Part shown: positions 2,057 to 22,156 of the stretch, piece after piece
How the letters are laid out: each line of letters opens with the position of its first letter
How positions within the stretch are numbered: the stretch's first letter is position 1
Source of the DNA: an uncultured Candidatus Saccharibacteria bacterium
GTDB taxonomy: Bacteria > Patescibacteriota > Minisyncoccia > UBA6257 > 2-01-FULL-56-20
Assembly (NCBI GenBank): GCA_964365185.1
Contig: CAYIOP010000002.1
Location: forward strand, 2,684-66,683
Direction: 5' to 3'
DNA: 64,000 nucleotides
The notes under the pieces: generated by a model
Database searches by the model: none
Seen by the model: only the letters and a program-made list of their open reading frames with translations
Told to the model about the DNA's origin: nothing
Position numbers and translations under genes: made by a program

Positions 2057-3325
2057 TCATTCGATCATTTTCAACACCTCCCCCACCGCCCCTCTCTCAC
2101 TCCACGGCAATTTCTTACCATTTTCAATATGAATAAATTCCTCACTCCCTTTGCCGGTTATAACCACCATGTCTCCTTCTTTCGCCAATCCAATCGCTTT
2201 TCTAATCGCCTCTTTCCTGTCCAAAATTTCTAAAACTTCTCGCGATTTGCTATTTGCTATTTGCAAAACCCCTTCCTTTAATTCATCTAAAATGTTTTGG
2301 GGTTTCTCATTGTACGGATCCTCATTCGTCAAAATTATCTCATCACAAAACTCCGCCGCAATTTTACCCATCACCGGCCGTTTCCACTTGTCTCTCCCGC
2401 CACCCGCCGCGCCCAATACACAAATCAATCTTCCTCTTTGCTCTTTGCCATTTGCGTTTTGCAAATTATCATAGACCCTACGCAAACTCTCCGGCGTATG
2501 CGCATAATCAATCACCACTTTAAACGGCTTCTCCTTTATAATTTCCATTCTTCCCGCCACTCCTTTAAATTCCAAAACCGCCTCCTTAATCACTTCGTCT
2601 TTTACTCCCACTAACTTTGCTAAACTTATGGCTGCGGATAAATTTTCCTGATTAAAATTACTAGAAAATAAATAAAGGTTATTGTCAATAGTAAGAAAAT
2701 ACTTCTTTAAATCCCTTTTAGAATAAAAATTAATTTTTTCTCTATTAAATTGATTTTTAAAAAAATCCGCGCTTTGATCATCCTGATTAAAAAATAATTT
2801 TCCGCCTTGCTTAAAAACTTTTTTAAAAAAATTTAATTTTGCTTGCCGATATTTTTCAAACGAGCCGTGCGCCTCAATATGCTCTGGCGCCAAATTTGTT
2901 AAAAGTCCGGCTTGCCACCGAATAAATCGGTGTCGCGACAAAACCACTCCTTCTGAAGTCACCTCGATTACTGCGTAGCGACATCCGGAGTTAACCGCTC
3001 TATTTAAAAATCGCTGAATAAACATTCTGCCCGGCATAGTGTTCTCGGTTAAATTTTTCTCCTGATCATTCCCGATTTTTACATAAAGCGAAGATAAAAA
3101 AGCTGTTTTTTCTTGCGCCTTATCTAAAATGCTTTTTAAAATTTCCATCACCGTAGTCTTGCCTTTAGTGCCGGTCACCCCAATCACCAAGATTTTCCGG
3201 CTGGGAAAAAAATAAATTAAAGCGCTAAAAAACGCCCATAAAAAATGGTAGGTTCTAACCAAAAATTTCAATTTATAAATTAACCGGAAAAATCCGGTTT
3301 GTTTTAAAAATCCCAAAGTATTCAT
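2057..3325 (-). CDS. Mur ligase family protein, MurE-like (UDP-MurNAc-tripeptide synthetase), with an N-terminal membrane segment
   Basis: Mur ligase P-loop VIGVTGTKGKTTV; DYAHTPESL motif typical of MurE/MurC-type ligases; LTNLAPEHIEAHG central motif. Confidence 0.65.
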   Translation of the reverse strand: MNTLGFLKQTGFFRLIYKLKFLVRTYHFLWAFFSALIYFFPSRKILVIGVTGTKGKTTVMEILKSILDKAQEKTAFLSSLYVKIGNDQEKNLTENTMPGRMFIQRFLNRAVNSGCRYAVIEVTSEGVVLSRHRFIRWQAGLLTNLAPEHIEAHGSFEKYRQAKLNFFKKVFKQGGKLFFNQDDQSADFFKNQFNREKINFYSKRDLKKYFLTIDNNLYLFSSNFNQENLSAAISLAKLVGVKDEVIKEAVLEFKGVAGRMEIIKEKPFKVVIDYAHTPESLRRVYDNLQNANGKEQRGRLICVLGAAGGGRDKWKRPVMGKIAAEFCDEIILTNEDPYNEKPQNILDELKEGVLQIANSKSREVLEILDRKEAIRKAIGLAKEGDMVVITGKGSEEFIHIENGKKLPWSERGAVGEVLKMIE

Positions 3326-3455
3326 ACCCCGTAGGAAATTGCCGGAAAAGCGTTTTTGTAAATATAAGAATATGTTTTCATTAAAAACTAAGTTTTACAA
3401 AGGATTTCTAATTACTGCATCTTTGACGGCAAACGCTTTATTTCCTACGGGGCAT
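3323..3455. repeat. 133-bp element with ~16-bp terminal inverted repeats (CATACCCCGTAGGAAAT ... ATTTCCTACGGGGCAT), copy 1
   Basis: TIRs at 3323-3339 and 3440-3455. A second copy of identical length lies at 16832-16964. The left end overlaps the start codon of the murE-like gene. Confidence 0.55.
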
Positions 3456-3467
3456 AAATAAATTAAG

Positions 3468-4049
3468 CTACTTACCCCGGCCGGATAAATTCTTCAAAGC
3501 CATTTTTAATTTATTCTCCAATGTGTCTTTTGAATCAAGTTTTGAAACTATATTTCTAACCTCATTTCTCTTATACCCCAAATCCACCAATACCTCAATC
3601 AAATCATTATTCGATTCTATTTTTGAAATCATATCTCCAGAACTAATGGTGCCAATTTTATTTCTTAATTCCAAAATAATTCTCTGGGCCAATTTTTCGC
3701 CTATCCCTCCGGCCTTAACCAAAAGGTCTCCTCTACCTTCCTTAATAGCTACTAAAACATCTTCCAAATGAGACGCCTCCATCACTGATCGAGCTGACTT
3801 CGGGCCAACTCCGCTAATAGAAATCAACAATTTAAAAAATTCCAGCTCTTTATCGCTGGAAAAACCATATAGTTCAATCCCACCTTCTTTGATATAAAGA
3901 TAGCAAAATATCGTAATTAAATCGCCTATCTTTACAGAGACCAGGAAATTTTTAAGGCAAAAGACCTGGAAACCGATTCCACCTACATCAACCACCAAAG
4001 AATTATCTCTGACTAAAACCGCTTTTCCGAATAAACTATAAATCACCAT
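3468..4049 (-). CDS. ruvA: Holliday junction DNA helicase RuvA
   Basis: N-terminal OB fold (VVDVGGIGFQV...LYGF) and HhH region LISISGVGPKSARSVM; ~190 aa, typical RuvA. Confidence 0.85.
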   Translation of the reverse strand: MVIYSLFGKAVLVRDNSLVVDVGGIGFQVFCLKNFLVSVKIGDLITIFCYLYIKEGGIELYGFSSDKELEFFKLLISISGVGPKSARSVMEASHLEDVLVAIKEGRGDLLVKAGGIGEKLAQRIILELRNKIGTISSGDMISKIESNNDLIEVLVDLGYKRNEVRNIVSKLDSKDTLENKLKMALKNLSGRGK

Positions 4050-4084: not shown

Positions 4085-4354
4085 AATGTTTAGCGCTAAA
4101 CATTCACTTTTCTTTTATCAGCCGATAAGTCGATAAAACCTACGTTTTTTGAAAAAACACTCAAAACAATGTTTAGCGCTAAACATCGATAATTAATCCA
4201 TAAACCGATAAGCCCGTAGAATCTAGATTTTTGCGAATTTTACTGAAAACAATGTTTAGCGCTAAACAATTTCTATCGTAGTAATCCGGCAAAATATACT
4301 ACTATATATAGTATTGCCGCATTTCCGTATATTAAGATGTTTAGCGCTAAACAT
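4085..4354. promoter_or_regulatory. array of four near-identical 18-20-bp perfect palindromes (A)ATGTTTAGCGCTAAACAT(T) with ~84-bp period, in the ruvA/yraN divergent intergenic region
   Basis: Copies at 4085-4104, 4169-4186, 4252-4268 (one mismatch) and 4337-4354. The sequence between copies is also partly repeated (ccgataag..aaaacaatg). Candidate operator array. Confidence 0.45.
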
Positions 4355-8845: not shown

Positions 8846-9961
8846 TTACGCCTTTAGTATCGGCATCAAAATATAAAAATAAGAGGCCTCATTAAGCGAT
8901 TTGATAAGCGAGGGCTTATTGTCTTGCTCGTTAACTCCCAAAAAAATTTCTTCACCTCCCAAAACTTTAAGTCCTTCCAGTAAATATCGCCAATTAAATC
9001 CCACCTCACCAAAATTTTTCTGAATTTTAGCTGGCAAAAAATACCGATTCTCGCCCACCTCACGATTAGCTGAAAAAATCTCAATCGCCTTTCCTCCTTC
9101 CGCTGATTTAAATCTAATTTCATTGGTCTGCCCGCTAAAAATTCCGGCCAGTTTTAAAGCATTTATTAATCCTTCTTTTTCCACTGTTATTTCCGCGTCA
9201 AATTTTTTCGGCAAAATACCAGAATAATCAGGAAAATTGCCGTCGGTTAGCCGAGAAATAAATTCCCAATTGCCGGTCTTAAATAAAACTTGGTTTTGAT
9301 CGTGATAAATAGAAAGTTTGTCCTGATCCTTTAAAATTCTTGCCAATTCTTGGGCCGCACGAAGTGGTATTAAAAAATTAAAATTTTGAGAATGATTAGA
9401 TTTGAATTGGTTAGATCCAATTGTCTTTTCCGCCAACCGGAAACTGTCCGTGCCGACTATTTTTAAATTATTTAAAGAAAAATTGAAAATAATATTGTTT
9501 AATTCGGTTCTCAAGTCCGAAAATTGAGTGGCTGCCAAAACCTGAGTCAGGGCTTCTTTAAAAATCCCGGCCTCAAGCTCTAAAAAGTCTTCCTCGTTTT
9601 TTATTTTAGGGATAATTGGAAAATCTTCCGCCGGAAAAACTTGAGTTAAGGCCTCGTAATTGTCGGTTTTGACCTCAAATTGACTGCCTTTTTTTTCTAA
9701 ATTCAATCTTTCGCTCTGAAGATTATTAATCAGATTTAAAAAAGTGCTTAGTGGAATATTTATTTTTCCTTTCTCAATTATTTTTCCAGAAAGATAATAG
9801 CTAATCGCCAACTCTAAATTAGTTGTAATTAATTTTATTTTATCAGCTTGAGCTTCAATTTGGACACATTTTAAAATCGGCAGATTTAAATTTTCTCCGC
9901 TAGCCCTTCCGACAATATCTAACCCTTCTTTTAAATTAGTTCGCATTGTTATCAACTTCAT
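8846..9961 (-). CDS. dnaN: DNA polymerase III beta subunit (sliding clamp)
   Basis: 371 aa starting MKLITMRTNLKEGLDIVGRA...ILKCVQIEAQADKIKLITTNLELAI; immediately downstream of dnaA. Confidence 0.85.
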   Translation of the reverse strand: MKLITMRTNLKEGLDIVGRASGENLNLPILKCVQIEAQADKIKLITTNLELAISYYLSGKIIEKGKINIPLSTFLNLINNLQSERLNLEKKGSQFEVKTDNYEALTQVFPAEDFPIIPKIKNEEDFLELEAGIFKEALTQVLAATQFSDLRTELNNIIFNFSLNNLKIVGTDSFRLAEKTIGSNQFKSNHSQNFNFLIPLRAAQELARILKDQDKLSIYHDQNQVLFKTGNWEFISRLTDGNFPDYSGILPKKFDAEITVEKEGLINALKLAGIFSGQTNEIRFKSAEGGKAIEIFSANREVGENRYFLPAKIQKNFGEVGFNWRYLLEGLKVLGGEEIFLGVNEQDNKPSLIKSLNEASYFYILMPILKA

Positions 9962-10122
9962 AATTATAATAATTAATTAATTAAATTACTGATGTTATTA
10001 ATTGCACAATTCTGGGGAAAACTAAAAATTATTTTTTAAAACTTAATTAATCAAATGTTTTTCCCGCCGCCAATTTATTTTTTTCTCGCGTCGCCAGTTT
10101 AATAGCTGTGGGTAAGGTGGGG

Positions 10123-11490
10123 CTACTTATTATTAAGGAGCGACTCCTTAATCATGATAATTTTTTGATTAAACGGAGAATTCTTATTAATTTCCTGGTT
10201 TATTTTCTCAAAAGAGTGAATTACGGTTGTGTGGTCTCTTTTTAACTTTTCCCCAATGTATGGGTAGGACATCCTCAGGATTTCCCGAAGTAAGTACATT
10301 GCCACTTGTCTTGGCTCAACCATTTCCTTTTTTCGCGACCTACTGACCAAATCCGGCAATTGAATGGCATAAAAATCTGCCACCGCTTTTAAAATTTGAT
10401 CATCAGTAATTCGGCCAAAGAAATTTTGAGTTGTTTTTTCTATAATTTCTTCCACTACTTTCTTGTCGATCTCTCCACCCTTACTGTCTTGATAAAACAC
10501 AAGCTTATTTACCACCCCCTCTAATTCTCTAATATTTCTCTGGATAGAATGAGCCACTAAATCAATTACTCCCTCCGGCAATTGCCGATTTGCGGCTTGC
10601 AAACGATTTTTTATAATTGCCACCCTCATCTCGTAATCAGGATAACTAATATCCACCGTTAGCCCTCCGTCAAACCTCGACCTTAGCCGTTCTTCAAGGG
10701 TTGGGATTGATTGCGGCGGCCGGTCTGAAGAAATAATGATTTGTTTGTTGTTTTCGTAGAGCGCGTTAAAAGTATGAAAAAATTCTTCCTCGGTTTTTTC
10801 TTTGCCTCCGATAAATTGAATATCGTCGATAATGAGCACGTCGCAATCTCGGTATTTTTTCTTGATATCCTCCATTCTTTTATTGCGTATCGCCCACACC
10901 ACATCGCTGGTAAATTTCTCCGAAGAAACATATCTCGACCTAAGTTTGCCGCCATATTTAAATTTGATTTCATTGCCCAGCGCCTGAAGCAAATGGGTCT
11001 TACCCAGGCCCACTCCGCCATAAATAAAAAAAGGATTATATTTTGAACCCACCTCTTGGATAATCGCCAAGGCGGCCGCATGAGCCAATTCATTTGAGGA
11101 TCCCACCACAAAAGAATCTAAAGTATAACGAGGATTAAGATTTGTCTCGGGATCTACTCTTACTAAATCCAAACCCGCCTGGCTTTCTAGCCGGCCCATA
11201 TCCACGCTAATTTCCAAAGAAGATTTTTTGTTTAGCTTGGGTTCGTGATTAGTAACAATAAATTCCAGTTTTTTGGCTGAGCTATCAAAATTTCTTAAGA
11301 TTCCTAAGATATTTTTTTCGTATTTATTCTCCACCCATTCCTTAGCAAAGTTATTAGGTAGGGCAATATAAAAAATTCCCTCCTTCTGATCCACTAGTTG
11401 GCTATTCTTGAGCCAAGTCACAAAGTTAGCTCTTGAAAGCTGGATCTCCATCTCACTTAAAGTTTGTTGCCAAAGTTGATTTAGATCCAT
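10123..11490 (-). CDS. dnaA: chromosomal replication initiator protein DnaA
   Basis: AAA+ Walker A GGVGLGKTHLLQA, Walker B LIIDDIQF; sensor motifs; domain IV QVAMYLLRE...HTTV. Confidence 0.9.
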   Translation of the reverse strand: MDLNQLWQQTLSEMEIQLSRANFVTWLKNSQLVDQKEGIFYIALPNNFAKEWVENKYEKNILGILRNFDSSAKKLEFIVTNHEPKLNKKSSLEISVDMGRLESQAGLDLVRVDPETNLNPRYTLDSFVVGSSNELAHAAALAIIQEVGSKYNPFFIYGGVGLGKTHLLQALGNEIKFKYGGKLRSRYVSSEKFTSDVVWAIRNKRMEDIKKKYRDCDVLIIDDIQFIGGKEKTEEEFFHTFNALYENNKQIIISSDRPPQSIPTLEERLRSRFDGGLTVDISYPDYEMRVAIIKNRLQAANRQLPEGVIDLVAHSIQRNIRELEGVVNKLVFYQDSKGGEIDKKVVEEIIEKTTQNFFGRITDDQILKAVADFYAIQLPDLVSRSRKKEMVEPRQVAMYLLREILRMSYPYIGEKLKRDHTTVIHSFEKINQEINKNSPFNQKIIMIKESLLNNK

Positions 11491-12128: not shown

Positions 12129-12870
12129 TTTAATTCTTGTTGAGCCGCTGCTTAATATCCTCGTCTTTCTTTATAAAACCATTGCTTTGGGGGATTTTGG
12201 GCTGGCGATCATTTACCTCACCATCCTAATTCGACTGCTCCTTTTCCCTGTTTTTAGTAAAAGCGCGATTCATCAGCGCGAGATGCAAAAAATCCAGCCC
12301 AAGCTAAAGAAAGTTCAGGAACAGCACAAAAATGATCGCGCCAAGCAGGCCGAAGCCATGATGGCGCTATATAAAGAGCACAAAGTAAACCCTCTTTCTA
12401 GTTTTTTCTGGTTGCTTATTCAAATTCCGGTTTTTATTGCTCTCTACCAGGTTTTTTCAAAAAGCTTAACCCTCGATTCTCTAAGCGGTCTTTATTCTTT
12501 TATCACTCCCCCCGCCTCCCTTGATTATTCGTTCTTGGGCTTGATTAATCTTACAAAAAGTAATATTTTAATAATTGGCTTAGCCGCCATAGCTCAATAT
12601 TTTCAAGGCCGGTTGTCTCTCCCTAAGGTTGATCCCAGCCAAACCTTGTCGTCCGCCGAAAAAATGAGCCGAAGTATGGTTTTTTTAGGCCCCGCCCTAA
12701 CCATCTTTGTTTTATTTAATTTCCCCTCTGCCCTAGGCCTTTTCTGGCTTACCACCTCGCTTTTTTCAATCGGCCAGCAATTCGTTATTAATCATCGCGA
12801 CCATGGAAAATTGGACCAACTTCGTACAAATAACCCTCCAAAAGATGGGGTTCAAGGACTTCCGAGTTGA
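12112..12870 (+). CDS. yidC: membrane protein insertase YidC (short form)
   Basis: Multi-TM protein; LLFPVFSKSAIHQREMQKIQPKLKKVQEQHKND...MMALYKEHKVNP matches the YidC/Oxa1 core. Confidence 0.8.
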   Translation: MGHLFNLILVEPLLNILVFLYKTIALGDFGLAIIYLTILIRLLLFPVFSKSAIHQREMQKIQPKLKKVQEQHKNDRAKQAEAMMALYKEHKVNPLSSFFWLLIQIPVFIALYQVFSKSLTLDSLSGLYSFITPPASLDYSFLGLINLTKSNILIIGLAAIAQYFQGRLSLPKVDPSQTLSSAEKMSRSMVFLGPALTIFVLFNFPSALGLFWLTTSLFSIGQQFVINHRDHGKLDQLRTNNPPKDGVQGLPS

Positions 12871-13267: not shown

Positions 13268-14410
13268 TTATTTCAAACCAAAAGAATAGAGTTTGTTGTC
13301 GTAGCGATTAATAAAGAAAATTTCACTTTCCGTTTTTTGGGGATTGATCATATCTAAGCCCTCGCCATCAAAAATTTTTTTAATTTCTCCGTCGCTCAAC
13401 TTAATTTTATAAAAAGCGTCATTCGAAAAGAAATTCTTTTTTAAATAATCATCCGGTAATCTAAATTGGGAGAAAGCTGTTTGGTCGCGATGGATGGCGC
13501 AATTTAAAAATTCAATCGCCACTTTTTTAGTACTGGTTTCGCTGCCGGTCTCCGCGCTAAAAAAACATTTTGAAGGCAAAGTGCTCCAAGCCAGTTTTTT
13601 AGCCCAATTCGCTTTTTGGTCCATTACTTCCAAGCGCCCCTCTTCCAATTTTAAAAATTTATTTCCCTTGTCGTCAAAAATCAACTCTAATCCTTTTTTA
13701 TTTCTCATCCAGAGTGTCAGGTTTCGGCTGGTTAAATTAAATTTCCAAATAGAACTCTCAAGCTCCGCGCTACTCGGCTCAATTAACAATAATTCGTCGG
13801 TCTTAACCCAATTTAAATCTATATCTTGAAGCTGGATCTTTAAAATTTCTCGAGGCGTTGATCTAGCGCTCGCTAAGTCCAGCGTCCCCAGAGATCCTCC
13901 GTTTTTCTCGGAAAAATAAGCGATGCGGTTGTCCAAGGGTGACCAATCCGCGGCTTTGATTCCTACGTCAAGTGGCCGCCAGGTTTTTTTCTCGGTGTCA
14001 AAAACGCTCCACTGAATTTTCTCCCACCCCTTCCCGAATTTAACCAACACCTTTTTCCCGTCCCAAGAAAATTTGGCTAAGGCCAAATCTTGAACTACGA
14101 CCGAGCTTAATGTTTGCTCTTCGTCTTTTAAAATTTTGGAAATCTGTCCATCCGGATGAACCACAATTATCGTCCCGTCTTTTTGGATAAAATAATTTAA
14201 GACCAAATCTTGGCTGATTAATTTAGTATTCTTGGTTAATTCTCCCAAACCCCCTCCGCCATTAACTTCTTCTTCGTTTGGCAAAATTAGCTCTTCTCCA
14301 TTGCCGCTTCCTTCTTGGTTGGGTTGTTTTTGTCGAATTAAATATCCAGCGACAAGCAAGATAGCTGCCGCAACCACCACCGAACCAATAATTAAATAAC
14401 GCTTCATCAT
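13268..14410 (-). CDS. membrane-anchored hypothetical protein with beta-propeller (TolB/PD40-like) repeats
   Basis: N-terminal TM; repeated W/F-x-(S/P)-DG-K/N patterns (FSWDGKKVLV, WSPLDNRIAYFS). First gene (3'-most) of the minus-strand T4SS-like cluster. Confidence 0.35.
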   Translation of the reverse strand: MMKRYLIIGSVVVAAAILLVAGYLIRQKQPNQEGSGNGEELILPNEEEVNGGGGLGELTKNTKLISQDLVLNYFIQKDGTIIVVHPDGQISKILKDEEQTLSSVVVQDLALAKFSWDGKKVLVKFGKGWEKIQWSVFDTEKKTWRPLDVGIKAADWSPLDNRIAYFSEKNGGSLGTLDLASARSTPREILKIQLQDIDLNWVKTDELLLIEPSSAELESSIWKFNLTSRNLTLWMRNKKGLELIFDDKGNKFLKLEEGRLEVMDQKANWAKKLAWSTLPSKCFFSAETGSETSTKKVAIEFLNCAIHRDQTAFSQFRLPDDYLKKNFFSNDAFYKIKLSDGEIKKIFDGEGLDMINPQKTESEIFFINRYDNKLYSFGLK

Positions 14411-14420
14411 TAATGAGTTA

Positions 14421-15317
14421 TTAATTTTTGCAATTAGTTATATCGCTTGGCAACAGGGGCAAACAAACACTGCTACTACAGGTATCAATTATATCGCTAC
14501 AACTATTTGAATTACTGCAAAGCAATTTGTACCCGGTCGGCTGACTTGAATCGTTTTGAGTGCAGCCAAATTTAGTTGCTCCGCCGCCTCCGCCAGTGGG
14601 GCCGCCCAAGCTGTAGCAACTGCCACCATTGCAATAGCCGCCCCCGTTATTTTCCATCGATTCATTGCATGATTGAGGGTTTAACCCAGCCGGACAATTG
14701 CCGTCTGGTATTATGCAATTTCCAGCCGAACAAACTTGTCCTAGTCCGCTGCAATTAGCCGACTCAAAACAACTTCCCGGCTCAACGCAGATATTATTAG
14801 GCGCGCAAATCAACCCTTCGTTGCAAGGGATAGCGGGCGTGCTGGTGCTCTGGATGCATATTCCTCCGACCGTGCCCGGCGGAATGCCCGGCAAAATTAC
14901 ATTTTTCCCCGTAATTTTTTTTAGTGTCGGAAGTTTTAGCTGGGTTAATTTTGGATTAATCGTGTTTAATACAACAAACGCGCCCGCCAAAAGCAAAAGT
15001 CCCAAAAGCGCCTGCTTGATTCGGTCTTTAGCATCTCCCTTGCGCGAAGGATTATCTGCCGAGAGCGTGTATTCAATACCTCCCCAAATCACCACCACAA
15101 AAGCCAGTAGCCCGCCCATCAGCAAGGCGTATTGATAAAGATTGCTGATGAGCCCAGCTGGGTCAGGATTTTTTTGGCTGGCTGGAATTGAGCCGGGAAT
15201 ATTGGGATTAATTTGCGCCGGATCAATCGTTGTTTCATCTGCCTGCGCCAAAGAAATCATCATCCCTCCTACTAATATTATCCCCGCCAATATCAAAAAA
15301 AATTTATAGTGCCTCAT
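14421..15317 (-). CDS. candidate T4SS pilin (TrbC/VirB2-like topology) with a long Cys/Gly-rich C-terminal extension
   Basis: Signal peptide, then two hydrophobic helices separated by a short charged loop (LLMGGLLAFVVVIWGGIEYTLSADNPSRKGDAKDRIKQALLGLLLLAGAFVVL). This is followed by ~150 aa rich in Cys, Gly and Ser. Confidence 0.35.
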   Translation of the reverse strand: MRHYKFFLILAGIILVGGMMISLAQADETTIDPAQINPNIPGSIPASQKNPDPAGLISNLYQYALLMGGLLAFVVVIWGGIEYTLSADNPSRKGDAKDRIKQALLGLLLLAGAFVVLNTINPKLTQLKLPTLKKITGKNVILPGIPPGTVGGICIQSTSTPAIPCNEGLICAPNNICVEPGSCFESANCSGLGQVCSAGNCIIPDGNCPAGLNPQSCNESMENNGGGYCNGGSCYSLGGPTGGGGGATKFGCTQNDSSQPTGYKLLCSNSNSCSDIIDTCSSSVCLPLLPSDITNCKN

Positions 15318-15322
15318 TAATT

Positions 15323-16033
15323 TTATTTTACAAAAGTTAATTTAATTTCCCGCGACGCCCGTTCGGTAAATTTTCTGGGATTTGAGACATTTAAAGTTGT
15401 TTTTAATTCAAAATTCGGCGCCACCTCTTGGTTTAAAACAACACTTAATTGATTTGATTTTTCGTTTTTTGCCGCTGGTCGGTCGTTAACTTTCCAAGAA
15501 AATTCAAGCTCCCCTTCGTTCTGAACGTTAAAAAAATACGGCTTAGCTAAAATTTGAATTCCTCGGTTTGAAAATTTATTTTCAAAAAACGGAGCAATTA
15601 GCGTCACCTCTGGCCTCACCGAGGGAATTAAAATGTTTTTAATAAGCATCCGCCCCTTATAATCTAGAATTTTAATTCTTAATTCCTGTTCTCCTGTCCC
15701 CACTACTCTAAAAGATGTCTTTTGGATGCCCACTCCGGTTTTAATCAAATCATCATTTAAATACCAGTAAATTTCGTTTTTAGAAAGGTTAACCAATCTT
15801 CCCGCATCAATTATTTCAAAGGCCGCTGAAATCAGCGAAGAATCAGTCGGCAAAATCTTGCCGGTAAATTCCGCTGGCGCGTAAGTATTAGCTCTCCAGG
15901 TGATTAAAAAATCTGGCTCCTTGGTCTGCGCCCGGGCTGTCAGGCCAAAAATTATTGCCAGCACCATTCCTAAAAACAGAATTATTACCCCGAATTTTAT
16001 CAGTTGTGGCCTATTGAATCCTATAAAAATCAT
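15323..16033 (-). CDS. hypothetical membrane-anchored protein (T4SS-like cluster)
   Basis: 236 aa, single N-terminal TM, beta-rich periplasmic part. Confidence 0.4.
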   Translation of the reverse strand: MIFIGFNRPQLIKFGVIILFLGMVLAIIFGLTARAQTKEPDFLITWRANTYAPAEFTGKILPTDSSLISAAFEIIDAGRLVNLSKNEIYWYLNDDLIKTGVGIQKTSFRVVGTGEQELRIKILDYKGRMLIKNILIPSVRPEVTLIAPFFENKFSNRGIQILAKPYFFNVQNEGELEFSWKVNDRPAAKNEKSNQLSVVLNQEVAPNFELKTTLNVSNPRKFTERASREIKLTFVK

Positions 16034-16219
16034 TTTAACTTTTTAATTATACCAGCTTTCTTCTTTGTTTCTAAACTGATAATTATCCACCATACTCCCT
16101 TCTGTTTTTGAAAATTGGGCATTGCTTACCCGCCGAAATCTTGATGAAGGCGGGATAATTGAAAATTTCTATCGTTTCTCCGTTGTATTACCACTGTATT
16201 TCTATGGCCTCTCTATTTT

Positions 16220-16834
16220 CTACGCCGTCATCCTGTAATCATTTTCTTCTTCGTCATCTTCGGGTTTTGCCTGCGGCTCCGGCAATTTTCGGGTAATATC
16301 CATCACTTTTTCTATTGGCTCTTTTTCTATACCAAAGGCCTCTTCTGAAACCTTAGGGGTTCCTGTTTCTTTTAACCCTCCTTCAGTTTTTGAAACAGCT
16401 TGGCCCGCTTCAGAACCACGAGCTGAACCCTTTGCTAATCCCTCGCTCGGAGCGCCTCCTCTTGGAGTTTGAACGCTTTTTTTAGGCATTCCCTTTTTGC
16501 CCCCAGCGCTTTGGCTAATTTGTACGGCTTTTGCCGCCGCGGATTCTGGATGTCTGTCGGCGTATACTGTCATCCAAAAACCAATTGTGAGGAGTGGCAG
16601 ATCTCCCACCCAAGGGATAAGTTCTGTCAGCCAAGACACTCCCATTCGGCCAAATCCTAAGCCCCTAAACCACAAATATATAACTATTATCGACGCCAGG
16701 ATGTCTCCTAGCCAGAAGTCATCTAAACCAAAAAAAATCAAAATAAGTTCAATCCCGTCAATTAAAATTAAATATATCGAAATCAGAACAATCTCTACTG
16801 TCTTAAGCTTTGGCTTCGGTTTCTCTTCATCCAT
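16220..16834 (-). CDS. hypothetical polytopic membrane protein with acidic C-terminus (T4SS-like cluster)
   Basis: 204 aa, 3 predicted TM segments. Its start codon is embedded in the left TIR of repeat copy 2. Confidence 0.4.
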   Translation of the reverse strand: MDEEKPKPKLKTVEIVLISIYLILIDGIELILIFFGLDDFWLGDILASIIVIYLWFRGLGFGRMGVSWLTELIPWVGDLPLLTIGFWMTVYADRHPESAAAKAVQISQSAGGKKGMPKKSVQTPRGGAPSEGLAKGSARGSEAGQAVSKTEGGLKETGTPKVSEEAFGIEKEPIEKVMDITRKLPEPQAKPEDDEEENDYRMTA

Positions 16835-16964
16835 GCTCCGTAGGAAATTAAATATTTTTTGTTAATTTGTAAACGACGTTTTCATATTATCTTACTTTGT
16901 CATAATTCTGCTAAATTATATTAGCTCAAAAATATTTTATTTTTCGTTATTTCCTACGGGGCAT
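16832..16964. repeat. 133-bp TIR element, copy 2 (CATGCTCCGTAGGAAAT ... ATTTCCTACGGGGCAT)
   Basis: Same length and ends as 3323-3455. The internal sequence is AT-rich with shared blocks (ttttgtaaa, gttttcat). Confidence 0.55.
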
Positions 16965-16978
16965 ATTTTATCTATAAT

Positions 16979-18736
16979 CTACGATTTTCCCTCTAAAATC
17001 TGTTGTGGATTCGTGGTGATAATTTTATCCTCAAAATAGGAAGCGATAATTTGAATCGAAACGTGTCTTCGGCCGGCAAAAAATAATCCTGTTCCCACTT
17101 CGGCTGTTAAAAGTAAACTTTTTTCCGCTTCAGTTAAACCAAAAGCCTTAGCCACGATATCAATGGTAGCCGGCGATTGTTTTAAAAGAATCTGAATTGA
17201 GGAGTTGGTGATAATCGGCCGGCCGTAAGGCGAGCGCAAAAAGTCCTCCACGTCTTGAGTAATAGTCGAGACCCCTAAGTAATATTTTCGAGCCCGTTTC
17301 ACCAGTCCAAAAAGGAAAATGGCGCTGTCTTCATATTTCATCATCCACCACGCCTCGTCGATAATTAAAAGCCGTTTTTTGAGTTGAGCGCGGGTTAAAT
17401 TCCAAATAAAATTTAAAATTATATACATCGCAATTGGCCGGAGCTCTTCTTCTAGATCGCGAATCGAAAAAACAATCAATCGGTTATTAACATTAATGTT
17501 GGTCGGCTGGTTAACAAATCCCGAAAAGCTACCTTTAGTGTATTTATAAAGTCGCTCCGCAATTCCTTTGCCCCCTTCCAAATTCCGTAAAACCGTCTCT
17601 AAATCTTCAAGCAGCGGTGCCTTCGCTCCGGTAAAATCCTCCCCAGCCACAATTTCGCGCGAAGCATAGGTTTCGGTAATTGCTCTATCCAAAAGCGCGT
17701 CTTCCACCGCCGTCACTTTGCCAAGCATTAGTTTAACCAGTCCTGCCATATTCACGATGTGAGACCGCAGAACATCCGATGCCGTCTCTCCGTCCGGAAT
17801 AGTTGGCACGTCAAACGGGTTAATGTGTTCGTCCGACGAGAGCGAGATATTAAAGAAACTTCCTCCAAAGGCCTCACATAACCTCTGGTATTCGTTTTCT
17901 GGGTCAATCACAATTACATCCACTCCGGTCATTAAGTAGCGGATAATCTCCAGTTTGGTAGTGTAGGATTTGCCTGAACCGGACTTGGCAAAAACTACCT
18001 GATTGGCGTTTTCAAGCGAAAACCGGTCAAAAATAATCAAATTATTATTGTGCCGGTTGATGCCGTACATAATGCCCTGGCTGGAGTTTAAGTCCTCAGA
18101 AACAAACGGAAAAAAAGAAGATACTGGCCCAGAATTCATTGGTGATTTCACATCGATTTTATCTTCTACGAGCGGGAAAATGGATTGCAACCCTTCAAGT
18201 TGTTGGAAAAGAGCGGGCTTAATATAAATCAGTTTCGCGTCCAAGATATTTACAACATGGCTTTCTAGTTTTGAGAGTTCCTCTAGGGTGTCTCCATAGA
18301 TGGCAATATAAACTCCCAAATCAAATAATTTTTCCTGGGCTTGTTGCAGAGAATCTCTTAAGGATTCCACGTCTTGAAGAGCGGTCTCTAGCATCGGGTC
18401 TCTCACTAAGCCCTTTTCTTGTTGGTCATTGATTTGGGATTCTATTTGAGCTGATTTTTTTCTTAAATTTTTAAGGGCAATGCCGGTGTCGATTGGATTT
18501 ATAAAAAGTGAGACGTCAAAAATGTTAGGCAAATTAATAAAGGGCTCAAACCAGCCGGTCGAGAGATAGCGTGGATAAGAAAAAACAAAAAACGTCTTGA
18601 CGAATTTGTCGCCGATTTTAAGGTAATTTGAATTCACCTGAACGCCGGCCGGCGAAATTATTTTTTTTGTTTCTTTAAAATTATTTTCCATATCTTTACA
18701 CTTCCTTTCCCGGAATATTTTGAAGTTCTTTTTCAA
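16979..18736 (-). CDS. VirB4/TrbE-family conjugal transfer ATPase, C-terminal ATPase portion
   Basis: Walker A FAKSGSGKSYTTK, Walker B LLIIDEAWWMM; TrbE/VirB4 C-terminal domain organisation. Confidence 0.75.
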   Translation of the reverse strand: MKKNFKIFRERKCKDMENNFKETKKIISPAGVQVNSNYLKIGDKFVKTFFVFSYPRYLSTGWFEPFINLPNIFDVSLFINPIDTGIALKNLRKKSAQIESQINDQQEKGLVRDPMLETALQDVESLRDSLQQAQEKLFDLGVYIAIYGDTLEELSKLESHVVNILDAKLIYIKPALFQQLEGLQSIFPLVEDKIDVKSPMNSGPVSSFFPFVSEDLNSSQGIMYGINRHNNNLIIFDRFSLENANQVVFAKSGSGKSYTTKLEIIRYLMTGVDVIVIDPENEYQRLCEAFGGSFFNISLSSDEHINPFDVPTIPDGETASDVLRSHIVNMAGLVKLMLGKVTAVEDALLDRAITETYASREIVAGEDFTGAKAPLLEDLETVLRNLEGGKGIAERLYKYTKGSFSGFVNQPTNINVNNRLIVFSIRDLEEELRPIAMYIILNFIWNLTRAQLKKRLLIIDEAWWMMKYEDSAIFLFGLVKRARKYYLGVSTITQDVEDFLRSPYGRPIITNSSIQILLKQSPATIDIVAKAFGLTEAEKSLLLTAEVGTGLFFAGRRHVSIQIIASYFEDKIITTNPQQILEGKS

Positions 18737-19376
18737 TCGTTTCCGGATTATAGAAATTATAAAAAAGCTCCACTAAGGCCTGGTCGTCTAAAAGAATCGC
18801 TTCTAGTCCGATTACGCTTAAGCCCTCAATAATTTGGTTTGATCGCTGGTTAATCTTGCTGACGTTTTCTTTAAACTCCAATTCTTTATTTTGTTCTTCT
18901 TGTTTTGGTTCCGGCGCTTGCTTTTTAAAAAACGGAATAAATTTAGTGATTCCCGCCACACTTTCTTTGCTTGGCAGATTAATTAAATTTAATGGCACCA
19001 CCACCAAAAATGTCTTCTCCATAATAGCGTTTTCATGAACAAACCCGCTGATAAATTGTTGGTATTCTCCAATTTGATTTCGGAGAAGGGGCGACGGTTC
19101 ATCGGCTTTTCTCGCTTCCAAGTTATTTAAATATCTTTCGATATTCACTTTTCTCGAATGAATGATGATTTGAATCGGAAAATCCAAGCTGTTTAAAAAA
19201 TTTTGATAACCCGACGAGATAATATCCATTTCACTCTCCGACATTAAAGCCGTATTTAACCCCGCCACCATCACTACCTGTCGCAGTCCTCCGTCTTTTA
19301 ATAGCACGACACTCTCTTTAATCTCCTCAATCTCCACCAAATCCTGAGTATTGGCTAGTTGTTGTTTTAGGGCCAT
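18696..19376 (-). CDS. probable N-terminal portion of VirB4 (separate frame, 41-nt overlap with the ATPase ORF)
   Basis: 226 aa. The two ORFs together total ~811 aa, the size of a full VirB4. They share strand, are adjacent and differ in frame by 1 nt. Confidence 0.4.
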   Translation of the reverse strand: MALKQQLANTQDLVEIEEIKESVVLLKDGGLRQVVMVAGLNTALMSESEMDIISSGYQNFLNSLDFPIQIIIHSRKVNIERYLNNLEARKADEPSPLLRNQIGEYQQFISGFVHENAIMEKTFLVVVPLNLINLPSKESVAGITKFIPFFKKQAPEPKQEEQNKELEFKENVSKINQRSNQIIEGLSVIGLEAILLDDQALVELFYNFYNPETIEKELQNIPGKEV

Positions 19377-19447
19377 AAAAATAAGTTCAATATATATTCT
19401 TCCTTCAATTATACTTTTACTTTGTCATTGAGTGAAGCCCTGACATA

Positions 19448-19924
19448 AGAGCTAAAAACGAAAAACTAAAAACGCAAAGTAAAGAATTAAGGGTTACCCT
19501 TTCTCTTTTTAAGGGTTAAGATGCTGGAGCCAAGAATATTAGCGATTTCAGTTGTTTCTTGTATCAATAATTCAACCTCTTCTAGGTTAGCTTTCTTAGC
19601 ATCTCTAAGTAAATACAGCCAAAACTTGCTCTCGTTGGCGGATTTTAAAGCATAACTAAAAAAATTAGTGAAGTCCTTTCTCGTGCTTCCAGCTTGAGCT
19701 TCAATAATATTCGCGCCTATACTAGTAGCGCTTCTCAGTAATTGCTTCGCGATTATTTGAACCGCTAAATCTTTTTTATCGAGGTTATCAATAAATTTTA
19801 TAATCTTCAAAGCCAATGAATAAGATTTCTTTTTTGAATCCATTCTTATTTTATATCTTTACACTTTTCGTTTTTAGCTTCTAATTAAATTCTACTTTAC
19901 GTTTTTCGCTTTTCGTTTTTAGCT
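19448..19924. mobile_element. IVS-like cassette: four-helix-bundle gene bracketed by ~30-bp imperfect inverted repeats
   Basis: Left IR agctaaaaacgaaaaactaaaaacgcaaagtaaag (19451-19484). Right IR ctttacgtttttcgcttttcgtttttagct (19896-19924). An extra direct copy cttttcgtttttagct lies at 19864-19880. Confidence 0.4.
19487..19843 (-). CDS. four-helix-bundle protein (23S rRNA intervening-sequence protein family)
   Basis: LAVQIIAKQLLRSATSIGANIIEAQAGSTRKDFTNFFSYALKSANESKFWL is the characteristic family core. Confidence 0.8.
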   Translation of the reverse strand: MDSKKKSYSLALKIIKFIDNLDKKDLAVQIIAKQLLRSATSIGANIIEAQAGSTRKDFTNFFSYALKSANESKFWLYLLRDAKKANLEEVELLIQETTEIANILGSSILTLKKRKGNP

Positions 19925-20449
19925 TTAACGGTAGTCCACCCTCCTCGCCGCTTTCCTCTCTCCGGTGATTTTCTCCAAAATTTGGTATTTTTCTTTAACC
20001 TTTTCCGAAAATTGTTTGGCGCTGGTTAAGCTTTCTTTGGTGCCGGTTTGAAGTTTTTGCCATTTTCCTTTTAAAGAAAGGCCCATCACGATATTTTCGA
20101 TCGACAATCCCGGCCGAGCCATTTTTTTAATTTCCTCGTCTTTTTTCACCTCTGATTTATCTAGAGTTGGTTTATCGGACTTCCAAACATAGGTTTGTGG
20201 TTGCCAGTAAAATTTTAAAGCTGAAAGCATTATCGTGGTAAAAGGCCGGCCGTTAATTTTAATAAAAGCCATCGAGCCGCCTACCGCCACCATTAGCAAG
20301 GTTAAAATCAGCCATAGCCAGGTTTTGACCATAAAAAATAGCAGAAAACTTAACCCCACCATCGCTCCGATATAAAAGAATTGTCTTAAGGTTAGGGGTC
20401 CAACTATTTTGTCTTCGGTTTCAATAAATTGAGGAACTTGAAATTGCAT
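19925..20449 (-). CDS. small two-TM membrane protein, VirB3/PrgI-like candidate
   Basis: 174 aa; two adjacent TM helices near the N-terminus; sits immediately upstream of the VirB4 ORFs, as VirB3 does in canonical T4SS. Confidence 0.35.
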   Translation of the reverse strand: MQFQVPQFIETEDKIVGPLTLRQFFYIGAMVGLSFLLFFMVKTWLWLILTLLMVAVGGSMAFIKINGRPFTTIMLSALKFYWQPQTYVWKSDKPTLDKSEVKKDEEIKKMARPGLSIENIVMGLSLKGKWQKLQTGTKESLTSAKQFSEKVKEKYQILEKITGERKAARRVDYR

Positions 20450-20484
20450 AAGTACATTTGATCTACAATATCTCTATTATCTCT

Positions 20485-20520
20485 CTATCACCTTTCGTCT
20501 ACAACCTAACACCTAATTTA
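20485..20520. repeat. heptamer-tract repeat (tctatcacctttcgtctacaacctaacacctaattt)
   Basis: Intergenic, upstream of the VirB3-like gene. Confidence 0.4.
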
Positions 20521-20524
20521 ATTA

Positions 20525-22138
20525 CTAAACTTTCTTAAGTGTTTCCAAGTCAATCTTTCCATTCTCCGGATTTAAATTCTTCGAATCCAAAGATATATTC
20601 TGCGGTTTTATGTCCGCGGTTTTAGGAGCTCCCTCTTGAAAAAATTTACCATCTTGTTTACTCGAGAAGAAATCATTTGTCTTAACACTTCCTTTGTTTA
20701 ATTCATCCGGTCTTTGAGGCAAGGGGGTGGGGGGCATTTTTATCTCCGGAGTCAATTTCTTATTTCCTCCGAAAAGCGATTTAAACCAATTTTTCTTCTG
20801 TGGCTCGGCTTCATAAGCCGGCAGTGAGCTTATCTGGTCTGCTCCATAATTAATTTTAGCCACTGGTTTTGGGATTGTTGGCTGCGGCATTTTATTGATC
20901 GGTGTTTCGGTTAGGGGTTTATTTAAATCAACCTTGTTGAATCGATTTAAATCCACCACCGGTTTTCCGGTTAAATCCATCGCCGGTTTTTGAAAGGCGG
21001 GTTTATTGATTGCTTCATTCGGTAAATTAGCTGGTCTCTCAAGCGGCGTCTGAAAAGAACTGTAGTGAACCACTTTTGGCGGCTTAATCACCTCTGATTT
21101 GGAAAATTCTTCACTGCTTTTTTTATCTTGTCTGCCAATTTCGATTCTAACAGGCCCCCTATCCTCGCCAGGCCTAATCATCTCGAACGTCGGGGACGGA
21201 GCTTCGATTTTAAAAGCCGCCTCTCTTTTCATCGGCGCCGAATTTAGCTCTTGATGAAGAATTAAAGGTTTCTCTGTTTCAATAGGGCGAACATTCGTTT
21301 TTGCTTCGAAGCTAGAAATTTTTGGAGTCGCCGTGATTTCAGTTGCCCCAACTTCTTGTTCTTCGTGTTTTTTAAGCACCCCGATTAATTCCGCGCCTGA
21401 CCGCTCTAATTTTTTAATTTCTTCCACAATCCCTAAAACATCGTTTTTTTGTTCCCAAGATAAGGCCGCTGGTTTTGGCGGCTCAATTGGTTTTTGAGCT
21501 GGCTGGATTTTTGGCGCTGGCGGCTGAGGAATCGGTATTTCTCTGGCTTGTGTCATGCTGCCGCTTAAATTCACCGGCATTATCGTTTCTATCTCGTCTA
21601 ACATCTTTGGCGCCACCTTTGGTTGCGCCTGAATTGGTTGAGGCTTTAAAGCCGGCTTAATTTCACCTTCCTTTTCTTTGGCCACTGTCCTTTCTATATT
21701 TTCCATCATGACCGGCGGCCTTTGGGTTTGAGTTATTGGTTGCTTTCTTTCTTCGGTTGTTTTAAAAGCCGCTTTTTCAAGTTCCAAATCCATTCCTACT
21801 CGCGATTCCTTGGTTACGGGAGCGTAAAGTTTCTCAAGCTGACTGCGATAAGGCGCAAAGAGCCGATTACCCAATGTTTTGGAAACATTCTCCGCGATTT
21901 TAATGTCGATTTTAAGAGCTTCCTGAAGTTCGCGCGCCACTTCCTCTGGGTGTAAAAATCCCATTATCACATAACCGGCGATTCTGGAAATTATTGGAAT
22001 TCTATCAACTGGAATATGTTCGGTCTCCGCAATTCGGTCTAAAATTTCCACGCTGTGTTCCGATACCAAAACCTCCCGCAGATTTTCTGGCAGAGTATCC
22101 CATCGCTGTAGAGCTTGTGATTTTGGAACAATAGTCAT
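20525..22138 (-). CDS. proline-rich hypothetical protein (T4SS-like cluster)
   Basis: 537 aa; central P/Q/K-rich low-complexity region (PIPQPPAPKIQPAQKPIEPPKPA). No catalytic motif. Confidence 0.45.
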   Translation of the reverse strand: MTIVPKSQALQRWDTLPENLREVLVSEHSVEILDRIAETEHIPVDRIPIISRIAGYVIMGFLHPEEVARELQEALKIDIKIAENVSKTLGNRLFAPYRSQLEKLYAPVTKESRVGMDLELEKAAFKTTEERKQPITQTQRPPVMMENIERTVAKEKEGEIKPALKPQPIQAQPKVAPKMLDEIETIMPVNLSGSMTQAREIPIPQPPAPKIQPAQKPIEPPKPAALSWEQKNDVLGIVEEIKKLERSGAELIGVLKKHEEQEVGATEITATPKISSFEAKTNVRPIETEKPLILHQELNSAPMKREAAFKIEAPSPTFEMIRPGEDRGPVRIEIGRQDKKSSEEFSKSEVIKPPKVVHYSSFQTPLERPANLPNEAINKPAFQKPAMDLTGKPVVDLNRFNKVDLNKPLTETPINKMPQPTIPKPVAKINYGADQISSLPAYEAEPQKKNWFKSLFGGNKKLTPEIKMPPTPLPQRPDELNKGSVKTNDFFSSKQDGKFFQEGAPKTADIKPQNISLDSKNLNPENGKIDLETLKKV

Positions 22139-22156
22139 TTAATTTAAAAATTAAAT

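Follow-up and report, generated by a model that had tools for sequence, protein, structure and literature searches.

Members of the IS1380 family have CC ends and generate duplications of 4–5 bp (ISfinder). They are the prokaryotic relatives of piggyBac (PMC10140906), a transposon in which the C-terminal domain of the transposase binds an internal repeat as a dimer, and in which four target bases are captured unpaired (PMC7351741). Other mobile elements are linked to gene expression: TnGBS/ISLre2 elements show oriented insertion at sigma-A promoters (PMC3942029), and Correia elements form a stem from their terminal inverted repeats (TIRs) that binds RNase III, with ends that can create promoters (PMC2649163). 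Here, we describe two short repeat units in a 64,000-nucleotide stretch of DNA from an uncultured Candidatus Saccharibacteria bacterium (GenBank assembly GCA_964365185.1, contig CAYIOP010000002.1, positions 2,684 to 66,683 of the forward strand), referred to as “the window”. Very probably, both units are insertions of a family of non-autonomous DNA transposons, known as MITEs (miniature inverted-repeat transposable elements), that is widespread in Patescibacteria. The Patescibacteria, whose genomes of about 1 Mb hold hardly any spare DNA, are considered poor in mobile elements. They largely lack Shine-Dalgarno sequences, and their mRNA leaders are often very short or absent.

A sequence-only reading of the window had listed a MITE-like mobile repeat among several possible identities for the two units. 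This identity is strongly supported by target-site duplications, more than 140 further copies, nesting of copies, an exact empty site, and the absence of the element at syntenic ruvA-murE junctions. The same reading had placed the units at 3323–3455 and 16832–16964, with inverted repeats running to their outermost bases. Both the positions and the inverted repeats hold; the element proper, however, is 126 bp, and the outer 4 bp are a direct repeat rather than part of the inverted repeat. On the plus strand, copy 1 reads CATA followed by CCCCGTAGGAAAT at one end and ATTTCCTACGGGG followed by CATA at the other (3323–3456), while copy 2 reads CATG followed by CTCCGTAGGAAAT and ATTTCCTACGGGG followed by CATA (16832–16965). 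The distance between the arms is exactly 100 nt in both. When up to three mismatches are allowed, the window holds four occurrences of the 16-mer ATGCCCCGTAGGAAAT, where 0.6 would be expected; 0 of 100 shuffles reach this count. A suspected third copy just beyond the window in the source genome proved to be a chance 9-mer beside a tRNA.

The CAT at 3323–3325 and at 16832–16834 is, as the earlier reading had said, the ATG of a minus-strand open reading frame (ORF). The first of these ORFs (2057–3325) is the Mur ligase gene murE, where alignment from M1 to M1 with a 61% identical homolog confirms the ATG; the second (16220–16834) encodes a 204-aa protein with no Pfam match. The upstream neighbors, ruvA (3468–4049) for copy 1 and a gene for a TraG/VirB4-like ATPase (16979–18736) for copy 2, are also on the minus strand. 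The interiors of the two copies share 29% ungapped identity, i.e., chance level, because the copies belong to different subfamilies: copy 1 to subfamily B, with internal repeat AAAGCGTTT, and copy 2 to subfamily A, which has AAATATTTT in its place. A shared interior is thus ruled out.

A genome-wide search for the arm pair at a spacing of 85–115 nt, in one genome per species, gave 28 loci, several per metagenome-assembled genome (MAG) and almost all in Patescibacteria; further copies had been a prediction of the earlier reading. The hosts include Saccharibacteria, Liptonbacteria, Parcubacteria, and bins from Hainich H43, the groundwater metagenome from which the window DNA itself originates. 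A scan of metagenomes for the arm pair gave at least 120 loci. Among the matches listed, we collected 145 non-redundant copies, almost all from Patescibacteria, of which 115 could be oriented by a conserved subterminal motif. All copies have the 13-bp TIR CCCCGTAGGAAAT/ATTTCCTACGGGG. Element length ranges from 109 to 310 bp across subfamilies, with size classes of about 125, 150, 190, 220, and 300 bp, and coding capacity is limited to mini-ORFs of 5–45 codons, with no transposase gene. Outside Patescibacteria, the same 11-nt arm pair occurs at ~100-nt spacing in Okeania sp. (locus L025, 85–197) and in Ignavibacteriaceae (L028, 6480–6608). These two pairs lack CCCC/GGGG tips and 4-bp duplications and have unrelated interiors; the L028 pair sits within a further, longer inverted repeat (AATCCTTGTAGAA...). 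The covariance models of Rfam 15 gave no match over the window copies or the elements in four scanned loci, even at E values up to 1. In a literature search, neither the arm sequence nor MITEs in Patescibacteria were found described, and the family appears to be new to the literature.

When the copies are aligned, the inverted repeat ends at CCCC/GGGG, and the four bases outside it form direct repeats that differ between copies (CATA, TATG, TATA, CTAA, CAAG, CAAA, TTAG, TTTA, and others). Perfect 4-bp repeats flank 73 of the 115 oriented copies, and another 18 copies match at three of four positions; in a control shifted by 10 nt, 1 of 115 has a perfect repeat. These flanking repeats are target-site duplications (TSDs). 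The 73 perfect TSDs comprise 13 tetranucleotides: TATG (49 copies), TAAA (5), TATA (4), CATG (4), and nine others. Besides TATG, the TSDs that contain ATG are CATG, AATG, and ATGA. The preferred target is TATG or, more generally, YWWR. The TSDs bear on one alternative, that the repeats are REPIN/PATE-type elements moved by an HUH enzyme (RAYT or IS200/IS605 TnpA) acting on single-stranded hairpins. A GTAG within the arm, conserved covarying hairpins, and a polarity bias would be expected of such elements. However, perfect 4-bp duplications of variable sequence in 73 of 115 copies, and ends that are true 13-bp TIRs, would not be; HUH-mobilized elements (IS200/IS605) are not known to leave a TSD. 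We therefore consider an HUH-mobilized repeat very improbable.

The family has a strong association with start codons. For 71 of the 115 oriented copies, the right-hand end of the element falls at −1 to +3 nt relative to an ATG that opens an ORF of 50 codons or more, as against 2 of 115 for the opposite side. The start codons at insertion sites are verified by the N-termini of homologs wherever this was checked, including murE and PerM. Elements that are not at a start codon are co-oriented with their neighbors at a ratio of about 3–4 to 1. The target at murE reads ...TTTATT/TATG/AATACT, 12 nt past the ruvA stop codon, and the target at the 204-aa gene, which lies in a type IV secretion system (T4SS) cluster, reads ...ATAAAA/TATG/GATGAA. 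Removing the element and one repeat in silico leaves compact junctions, ruvA-TAG-cttaatttatt-TATG-aat for murE and TAG-attatagataaaa-TATG-gat for the 204-aa gene. The element therefore entered a tetranucleotide in which the start codon lay, and its ATG was restored by the duplication. The CAT at the ends of the window units coincides with a start codon because insertion into TATG duplicates this tetranucleotide, an explanation that replaces a leader evolved in place.

In most copies, the TATG target consists of a T and the ATG of a gene start, and the duplication accordingly leaves one intact ATG on the gene side and a second on the far side of the element. This second ATG reads ATG CCC CGT AGG AAA through the TIR, which encodes MPRRK* in both window copies and 5–45 codons elsewhere. 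Mini-ORFs of this length range are found in 63 of 63 copies with an ATG on both sides, and a single one reaches the real ATG. Coupling of the mini-ORF to the gene was considered and rejected, since the mini-ORFs terminate a long way from the real ATG and differ in length. Among TSDs without ATG, TAAA and TAAG contain TAA; in L019, the one copy checked, the stop codon of the upstream gene lies inside the duplication.

Several observations point to mobility. First, there is an exact empty site at an AI-2E/PerM gene: locus L153 reads ...TGTATAATTAAATA joined directly to ATGGAAAAATTT, whereas L006 reads ...TGTATAATTAACCCAAATG, then the element, then ATGGAAAAATTC. The PerM proteins of L006 and L153 are 86% identical, and three further relatives are empty too. 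The PerM start is filled in L006, L023, and L162, and empty in L153–L155, L156, L158, and L160. Second, the MAG CAYSWC has four copies that are 98–99% identical and located at four different genes; these insertions are presumably recent. Third, copies are nested, with subfamily B inside the left-end hairpin of subfamily A at ...TTTTCTCG (L026, 2346–2611; L022, 2331–2590; L009, 5573–5814). L009 is a chimera of the left part of A and of B, bounded by its own CATG duplication, and A+B composites therefore seem to move as units. Fourth, when orthologous murE loci were compared, two relatives with a syntenic ruvA-murE junction had ordinary spacers without the element. The copies also appear to be sites of recombination. 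L092 (367–517) and the reverse complement of L113 (about 12183–12334) share an identical downstream gene and an identical right end of the element (~35 nt), but the remainder of the element and the DNA upstream of it show no relationship; the flanks of the L092 element are mismatched (TTTA/TATG). This indicates, from the alignment, that recombination between MITE copies rearranged the genome. Independent insertion at one site is ruled out here, as the homology breakpoint lies inside the element.

Two explanations without transposition can be weighed against these observations. In one, each element is an immobile cis-regulatory RNA, such as a riboswitch- or attenuator-like leader, that evolved in place before each gene. 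The position directly 5′ of start codons and the stable predicted structure are what such a leader would have, but the idea is contradicted by the variable 4-bp direct repeats and by the exact empty site, and is at odds with the nested copies, the dozens of unrelated downstream genes, the absence at syntenic junctions, and the lack of an Rfam match; it is extremely improbable. In the other, the unit is an inverton, with the inverted repeats serving as crossover sites for a site-specific invertase that flips a promoter. Short inverted repeats around a ~100-bp segment directly upstream of genes resemble this arrangement. However, the direct repeats lie outside the inverted repeats, copies occur in essentially one orientation (71:2), and the gap between the genes flanking copy 2 is the same 144 nt, in the same gene layout, in four places listed of six contigs of the population. 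Moreover, a Pfam search of the 64-kb window, covering the four flanking ORFs, every ORF of 250 aa or more, and some of the shorter ORFs, detected neither a transposase nor a recombinase. We give the inverton almost no credence.

The ends of the element differ from one another. In all A/C-type copies, GAAAATATTT(A) abuts the right TIR, 1 bp away, whereas at the left end the palindrome GAAAATATTTTC lies 8–35 bp from the TIR and is extended by stems. The internal stem covaries between subfamilies (GGGATTTT/AAAATCCC, GGGGTTTT/AAAACCCC, GGGTTCTC/GAGAACCC, CAGAGA/TCTCTG, and others), a pattern that speaks for selection on a hairpin, either as DNA or as RNA.

Some findings weigh against the interpretation of the units as MITE insertions. 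(i) In loci totaling about 1 Mb, we found no autonomous copy, i.e., no pair of these TIRs 1–3 kb apart enclosing a transposase gene, although an element can be called a MITE without one. Scans of the whole collection covered TIR pairs up to 600 bp apart; every lone TIR in the examined loci had a degenerate partner 130–220 bp away, and the viral contigs scanned for an autonomous element gave no match. (ii) For the exact empty sites of the two window loci, no database relative is near enough, the best MurE homolog being 61% identical. (iii) The duplication at copy 2 is imperfect (CATG/CATA), and its TIR has one mismatch. (iv) Copy 1, of subfamily B, has by homology the polarity opposite to the A/C rule. 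(v) The covarying stem is a hint of constraint beyond that on a purely selfish repeat. (vi) A similar hint comes from the PerM start, where the elements of L006 (308–437) and L023 (reverse complement, 2563–2692)/L162 are 88% identical and the adjacent genes 71% identical in nucleotides and 65% in amino acids. The immediate flanks of the filled PerM sites in L006 and L023 are nearly identical, yet closer relatives are empty; this could mean that insertion recurred at the site, that a filled allele was transferred laterally, or that constraint is strong.

Because no autonomous copy was found, the transposase family is judged from the architecture of the ends alone. Mobilization would occur in trans, by a DDE-type transposase making 4-bp staggered cuts. 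The enzyme may be IS1380/piggyBac-like, given the CCC...GGG tips, the 13-bp TIR, and the position of GAAAATATTTTC 1 bp from one TIR and 8–35 bp from the other. On this analogy, the ends show a resemblance to IS1380/piggyBac, not membership in that group.

If the units are MITE insertions, the accumulation of copies at start codons may reflect selection. With genes so densely packed, few sites would tolerate an insertion, and a site where the ATG is regenerated and everything upstream is kept intact would be one of them. Selection could also account for the polarity of A/C-type copies, if the A/U-rich GAAAAUAUUUAAUUU end must face the gene; the other end, read in reverse, would present a hairpin and then a U-rich stretch. 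Alternatively, polarity could be set by an asymmetric transpososome. The more symmetric ends of subfamily B and the opposite polarity of copy 1 fit this second idea, with very few B copies available.

A rival to selection is targeting: the transposase would actively pick start sites, for example where the DNA unpairs readily or has already been opened at the +1 position or the ATG of leaderless or short-leader genes, and the asymmetric ends would fix the orientation. Targeting concerns why copies sit at start codons, not whether they are MITEs. It would explain the 71:2 polarity, and why even copies that are 98–99% identical, and so presumably recent, are at start codons. Sequences upstream of the targets are also suggestive. 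A TAnnnT box starts 12–16 nt before the ATG in about 27 of 63 left flanks, and many targets are 6–16 nt downstream of a TATAAT-like box. The PerM/AI-2E genes of five Patescibacteria lineages are preceded, 6–9 nt before the ATG, by a TG-extended −10 box (TGTATAAT or close variants, e.g., TGTAGGAT or TGTAATAT). The PerM starts of these five lineages have no Shine-Dalgarno sequence, and their sequence suggests that PerM mRNAs are leaderless or have very short leaders. Described transposons provide parallels: piggyBac binds its four target bases unpaired (PMC7351741), and in TnGBS/ISLre2 elements the dissymmetry of the inverted repeats sets the orientation, with symmetric-repeat elements inserting both ways (PMC3942029). 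Subfamily B, whose ends are more symmetric, occurs in the other polarity. Moreover, the same PerM start codon is filled in two lineages while closer relatives are empty. However, many targets are operon-internal starts without a promoter, such as murE with its 12-nt spacer after ruvA, and non-ATG targets exist (TAAA, TAAG, and others, including the upstream gene's stop codon in L019). Purifying selection in a gene-dense genome could give the same distribution, and the identical immediate flanks at both filled PerM sites would also be expected if a filled allele had been transferred laterally. We regard targeting as less likely than not. A more elaborate version is unlikely as a whole. In it, the transposase would home to the opening base pairs of genes, recognizing as easily unpaired DNA the start codon or transcription start of short-leader genes without Shine-Dalgarno sequences; asymmetric ends would fix the orientation; and each insertion would add a structured leader, made up of the stem of the TIRs, a mini-ORF over the 5′ arm, and an A/U-rich landing pad for ribosomes, that relays initiation from the old to the regenerated ATG.

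Whatever brought the elements to start codons, co-transcription would place them in mRNA. The earlier reading had proposed that the sequence next to the AUG pairs with its partner upstream, either as an RNase III processing stem or as a cis-regulatory translational switch shared by two unrelated genes. In RNA folding predictions, both regions form a long stem that includes the AUG and is far more stable than in shuffled sequences (z-scores of −4.9 and −5.6), and on these models RNase III processing or start-codon sequestration is physically plausible. The TIR stem in the mRNA is simply the paired transposon ends. A shared switch is not supported by the comparison of the two copies, which belong to different subfamilies, have unrelated interiors, and, by homology, have opposite polarities with respect to their genes. 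As a hypothesis, ribosomes that initiate at the upstream ATG would sit on the 5′ arm and might in this way open the stem.

It is possible that the elements persist because the added RNA, with its TIR stem, internal hairpin, A/U-rich 3′ end, and mini-ORF, was exapted as a 5′ leader, one that controls or aids the translation or processing of the gene that follows. For instance, ribosomes on the mini-ORF could relieve sequestration of the start codon, or RNase III could cleave the RNA, as in Neisseria Correia elements, which provide a precedent (PMC2649163). Consistent with an exapted leader, the predicted stems, which include the AUG, are very stable; every start-codon copy has the ATG-CCC-CGU-AGG-AAA mini-ORF exactly on the 5′ arm; the internal stem covaries; polarity is strong; and in two of three informative orthologous pairs the element is more conserved than the neighboring gene. 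Other properties speak against it. The window copies have unrelated interiors and opposite polarity, and mini-ORF length varies from 5 to 45 codons. Degenerate copies often lose one arm without compensation. Interior folding is weak and alike on both strands (z-scores of −1.06 and −0.98), and a structure specific to the sense strand is accordingly not supported. A sigma-70 promoter scan of both window copies gave results at chance level. Exaptation as a leader is, in our judgment, doubtful. Two related candidates were set aside. An outward promoter was rejected in view of the chance-level scan of the window copies and because a TATAAT-like box, 37 nt from the right end, is present in just 33 of 115 copies and absent from subfamily A and from the window copies. 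An antisense terminator was called by a loose heuristic in 84 versus 38 of 114 cases, a difference confounded by antisense U-richness and not used as evidence.

The positions of the features described above are listed in Table 1.

Table 1. Positions of the two probable MITE copies, their parts, and the PerM promoter-like boxes (window coordinates unless a locus is named).
Feature	Coordinates	Strand	Remarks
MITE copy 1, subfamily B, 126 bp	3327..3452	-	Between ruvA stop (3468-3470) and murE start; nhmmer against subfamily-B profile, E 3.8e-34, minus strand
TSD, gene side, copy 1	3323..3326	.	CATA on +, TATG on -; holds murE start codon 3323-3325
TSD, upstream, copy 1	3453..3456	.	CATA on +, TATG on -; perfect 4-bp direct repeat
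TIR CCCCGTAGGAAAT, gene-proximal arm, copy 1	3327..3339	+	
TIR ATTTCCTACGGGG, gene-distal arm, copy 1	3440..3452	+	
Mini-ORF ATG CCC CGT AGG AAA TAA (MPRRK*), copy 1	3438..3455	-	Upstream TSD ATG plus TIR; insertion by-product
MITE copy 2, subfamily A, 126 bp	16836..16961	-	Between TraG/VirB4-like ATPase stop (16979-16981) and start of 204-aa gene; nhmmer against subfamily-A profile, E 2.7e-22, minus strand
Gene-side flank CATG, copy 2	16832..16835	.	CATG on -; holds start codon 16832-16834; matches other flank at 3/4
Upstream flank CATA, copy 2	16962..16965	.	TATG on -
TIR arm CTCCGTAGGAAAT, copy 2	16836..16848	+	One mismatch to consensus
TIR arm ATTTCCTACGGGG, copy 2	16949..16961	+	
Mini-ORF MPRRK*, copy 2	16947..16964	-	
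Left-end internal palindromic repeat/hairpin of subfamily A (AACGAAAAATAAAATATTTTTGAGCTA), copy 2	16922..16948	-	
Right-end internal half-repeat (CAAAAAATATTTA), copy 2	16849..16861	-	Abuts gene-proximal TIR; polarity-marking module of A/C-type elements
-10 box region of PerM genes	L153, L156, L158, L160: about 1480-1500; L006: 280-307		

The window has other features of note. Just outside copy 1, at 3282–3299 on the plus strand, a terminator-like hairpin followed by a T-run (AACCGGAAAAATCCGGTT TGTTTT) lies antisense to murE codons 9–15. On the other side of ruvA, the divergent region between ruvA and the UPF0102-YebC-RuvC operon (4087–4353) has four exact copies of the 16-bp palindrome TGTTTAGCGCTAAACA, spaced by 83–85 bp. 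No shuffle reached this count, the array is not a tandem repeat, and a related palindrome is found in the ruvA-murE spacer of a relative (L032). The array looks like an operator array of a repair regulon, possibly with a lineage-specific LexA-type box. The genes dnaN and dnaA are at 8846–11490, with AT-rich palindromic DNA at 9959–10060. Gene orientation switches from minus to plus at about 38.6–38.9 kb (iPGM/RNase Y), and GC skew changes sign at about 40–44 kb; the replication origin may not be beside dnaA. The T4SS cluster in which copy 2 is located extends from 13268 to 26714 and includes a T4SS pilin and the TraG/VirB4-like ATPase. Within it, three consecutive large ORFs (20525–26714; 537, 716, and 809 aa) and several smaller ones have no Pfam match.

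An abundant MITE superfamily in Patescibacteria shows a route by which transposons can enter a compact genome: they land on a start codon in a fixed orientation, and target duplication rebuilds it. In doing so, they have placed a strong predicted hairpin and a mini-ORF before dozens of genes, some of them essential, such as murE. The family makes both translation start in Patescibacteria and the targeting of start sites by DDE transposases testable. There are also practical consequences, since assemblies break at the repeats, rearrangements arise through them (L092/L113), and gene-calling programs may choose the wrong ATG. If the link to IS1380/piggyBac is true, the family would be a prokaryotic model of piggyBac-like asymmetric ends with a non-TTAA target. 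If the transposase homes to gene starts, the element would in effect be a mobile 5′ leader that rewires expression in the streamlined genomes of the candidate phyla radiation (CPR).

How does the family compare with described systems? Its location on start codons, with a fixed polarity, is unusual for a bacterial MITE. The Correia elements of Neisseria (CREE/NEMIS) and similar MITEs (RUP, ERIC) are alike in being non-coding, about 100–155 bp long, and bounded by TIRs and a short duplication, with many gene-adjacent copies. As for Correia elements, co-transcription would pair the TIRs into a long RNA stem. By contrast, Correia elements have a 26-bp TIR of another sequence and a TA duplication, and are found in Neisseria, whereas the duplication here is 4 bp (mostly TATG) and the hosts are Patescibacteria. 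We know of no Correia-like element reported on start codons with fixed polarity. The Rickettsia palindromic elements (RPE) are likewise small, mobile, and palindromic, and persist in a reduced genome by inserting without destroying genes (PMC10969869), but they lie in frame inside ORFs and are translated, while the Patescibacteria MITE is just outside the ORF and regenerates its ATG. The prokaryotic Mutator-like DDE elements TnGBS/ISLre2/ISKra4 share the fixed orientation and a fixed position relative to a gene-expression signal, set by dissymmetry of the ends (PMC3942029). They differ in being autonomous, in belonging to another transposase family, and in inserting 15–17 bp upstream of the −35 box rather than at the start codon itself, which is the landmark for the Patescibacteria MITE. 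With piggyBac/IS1380, the family shares the 4-bp TSD, the 5′-CCC...GGG-3′ tips, the ~13-bp TIR, the palindromic internal repeat, and its asymmetric spacing at the two ends (PMC7351741). The likeness is known from the ends alone, and the TIRs cannot be aligned with those of ISEcp1 or piggyBac beyond the CCC and TAG motifs. Lastly, the target of piggyBac is TTAA, whereas that of the Patescibacteria MITE is TATG/YWWR.

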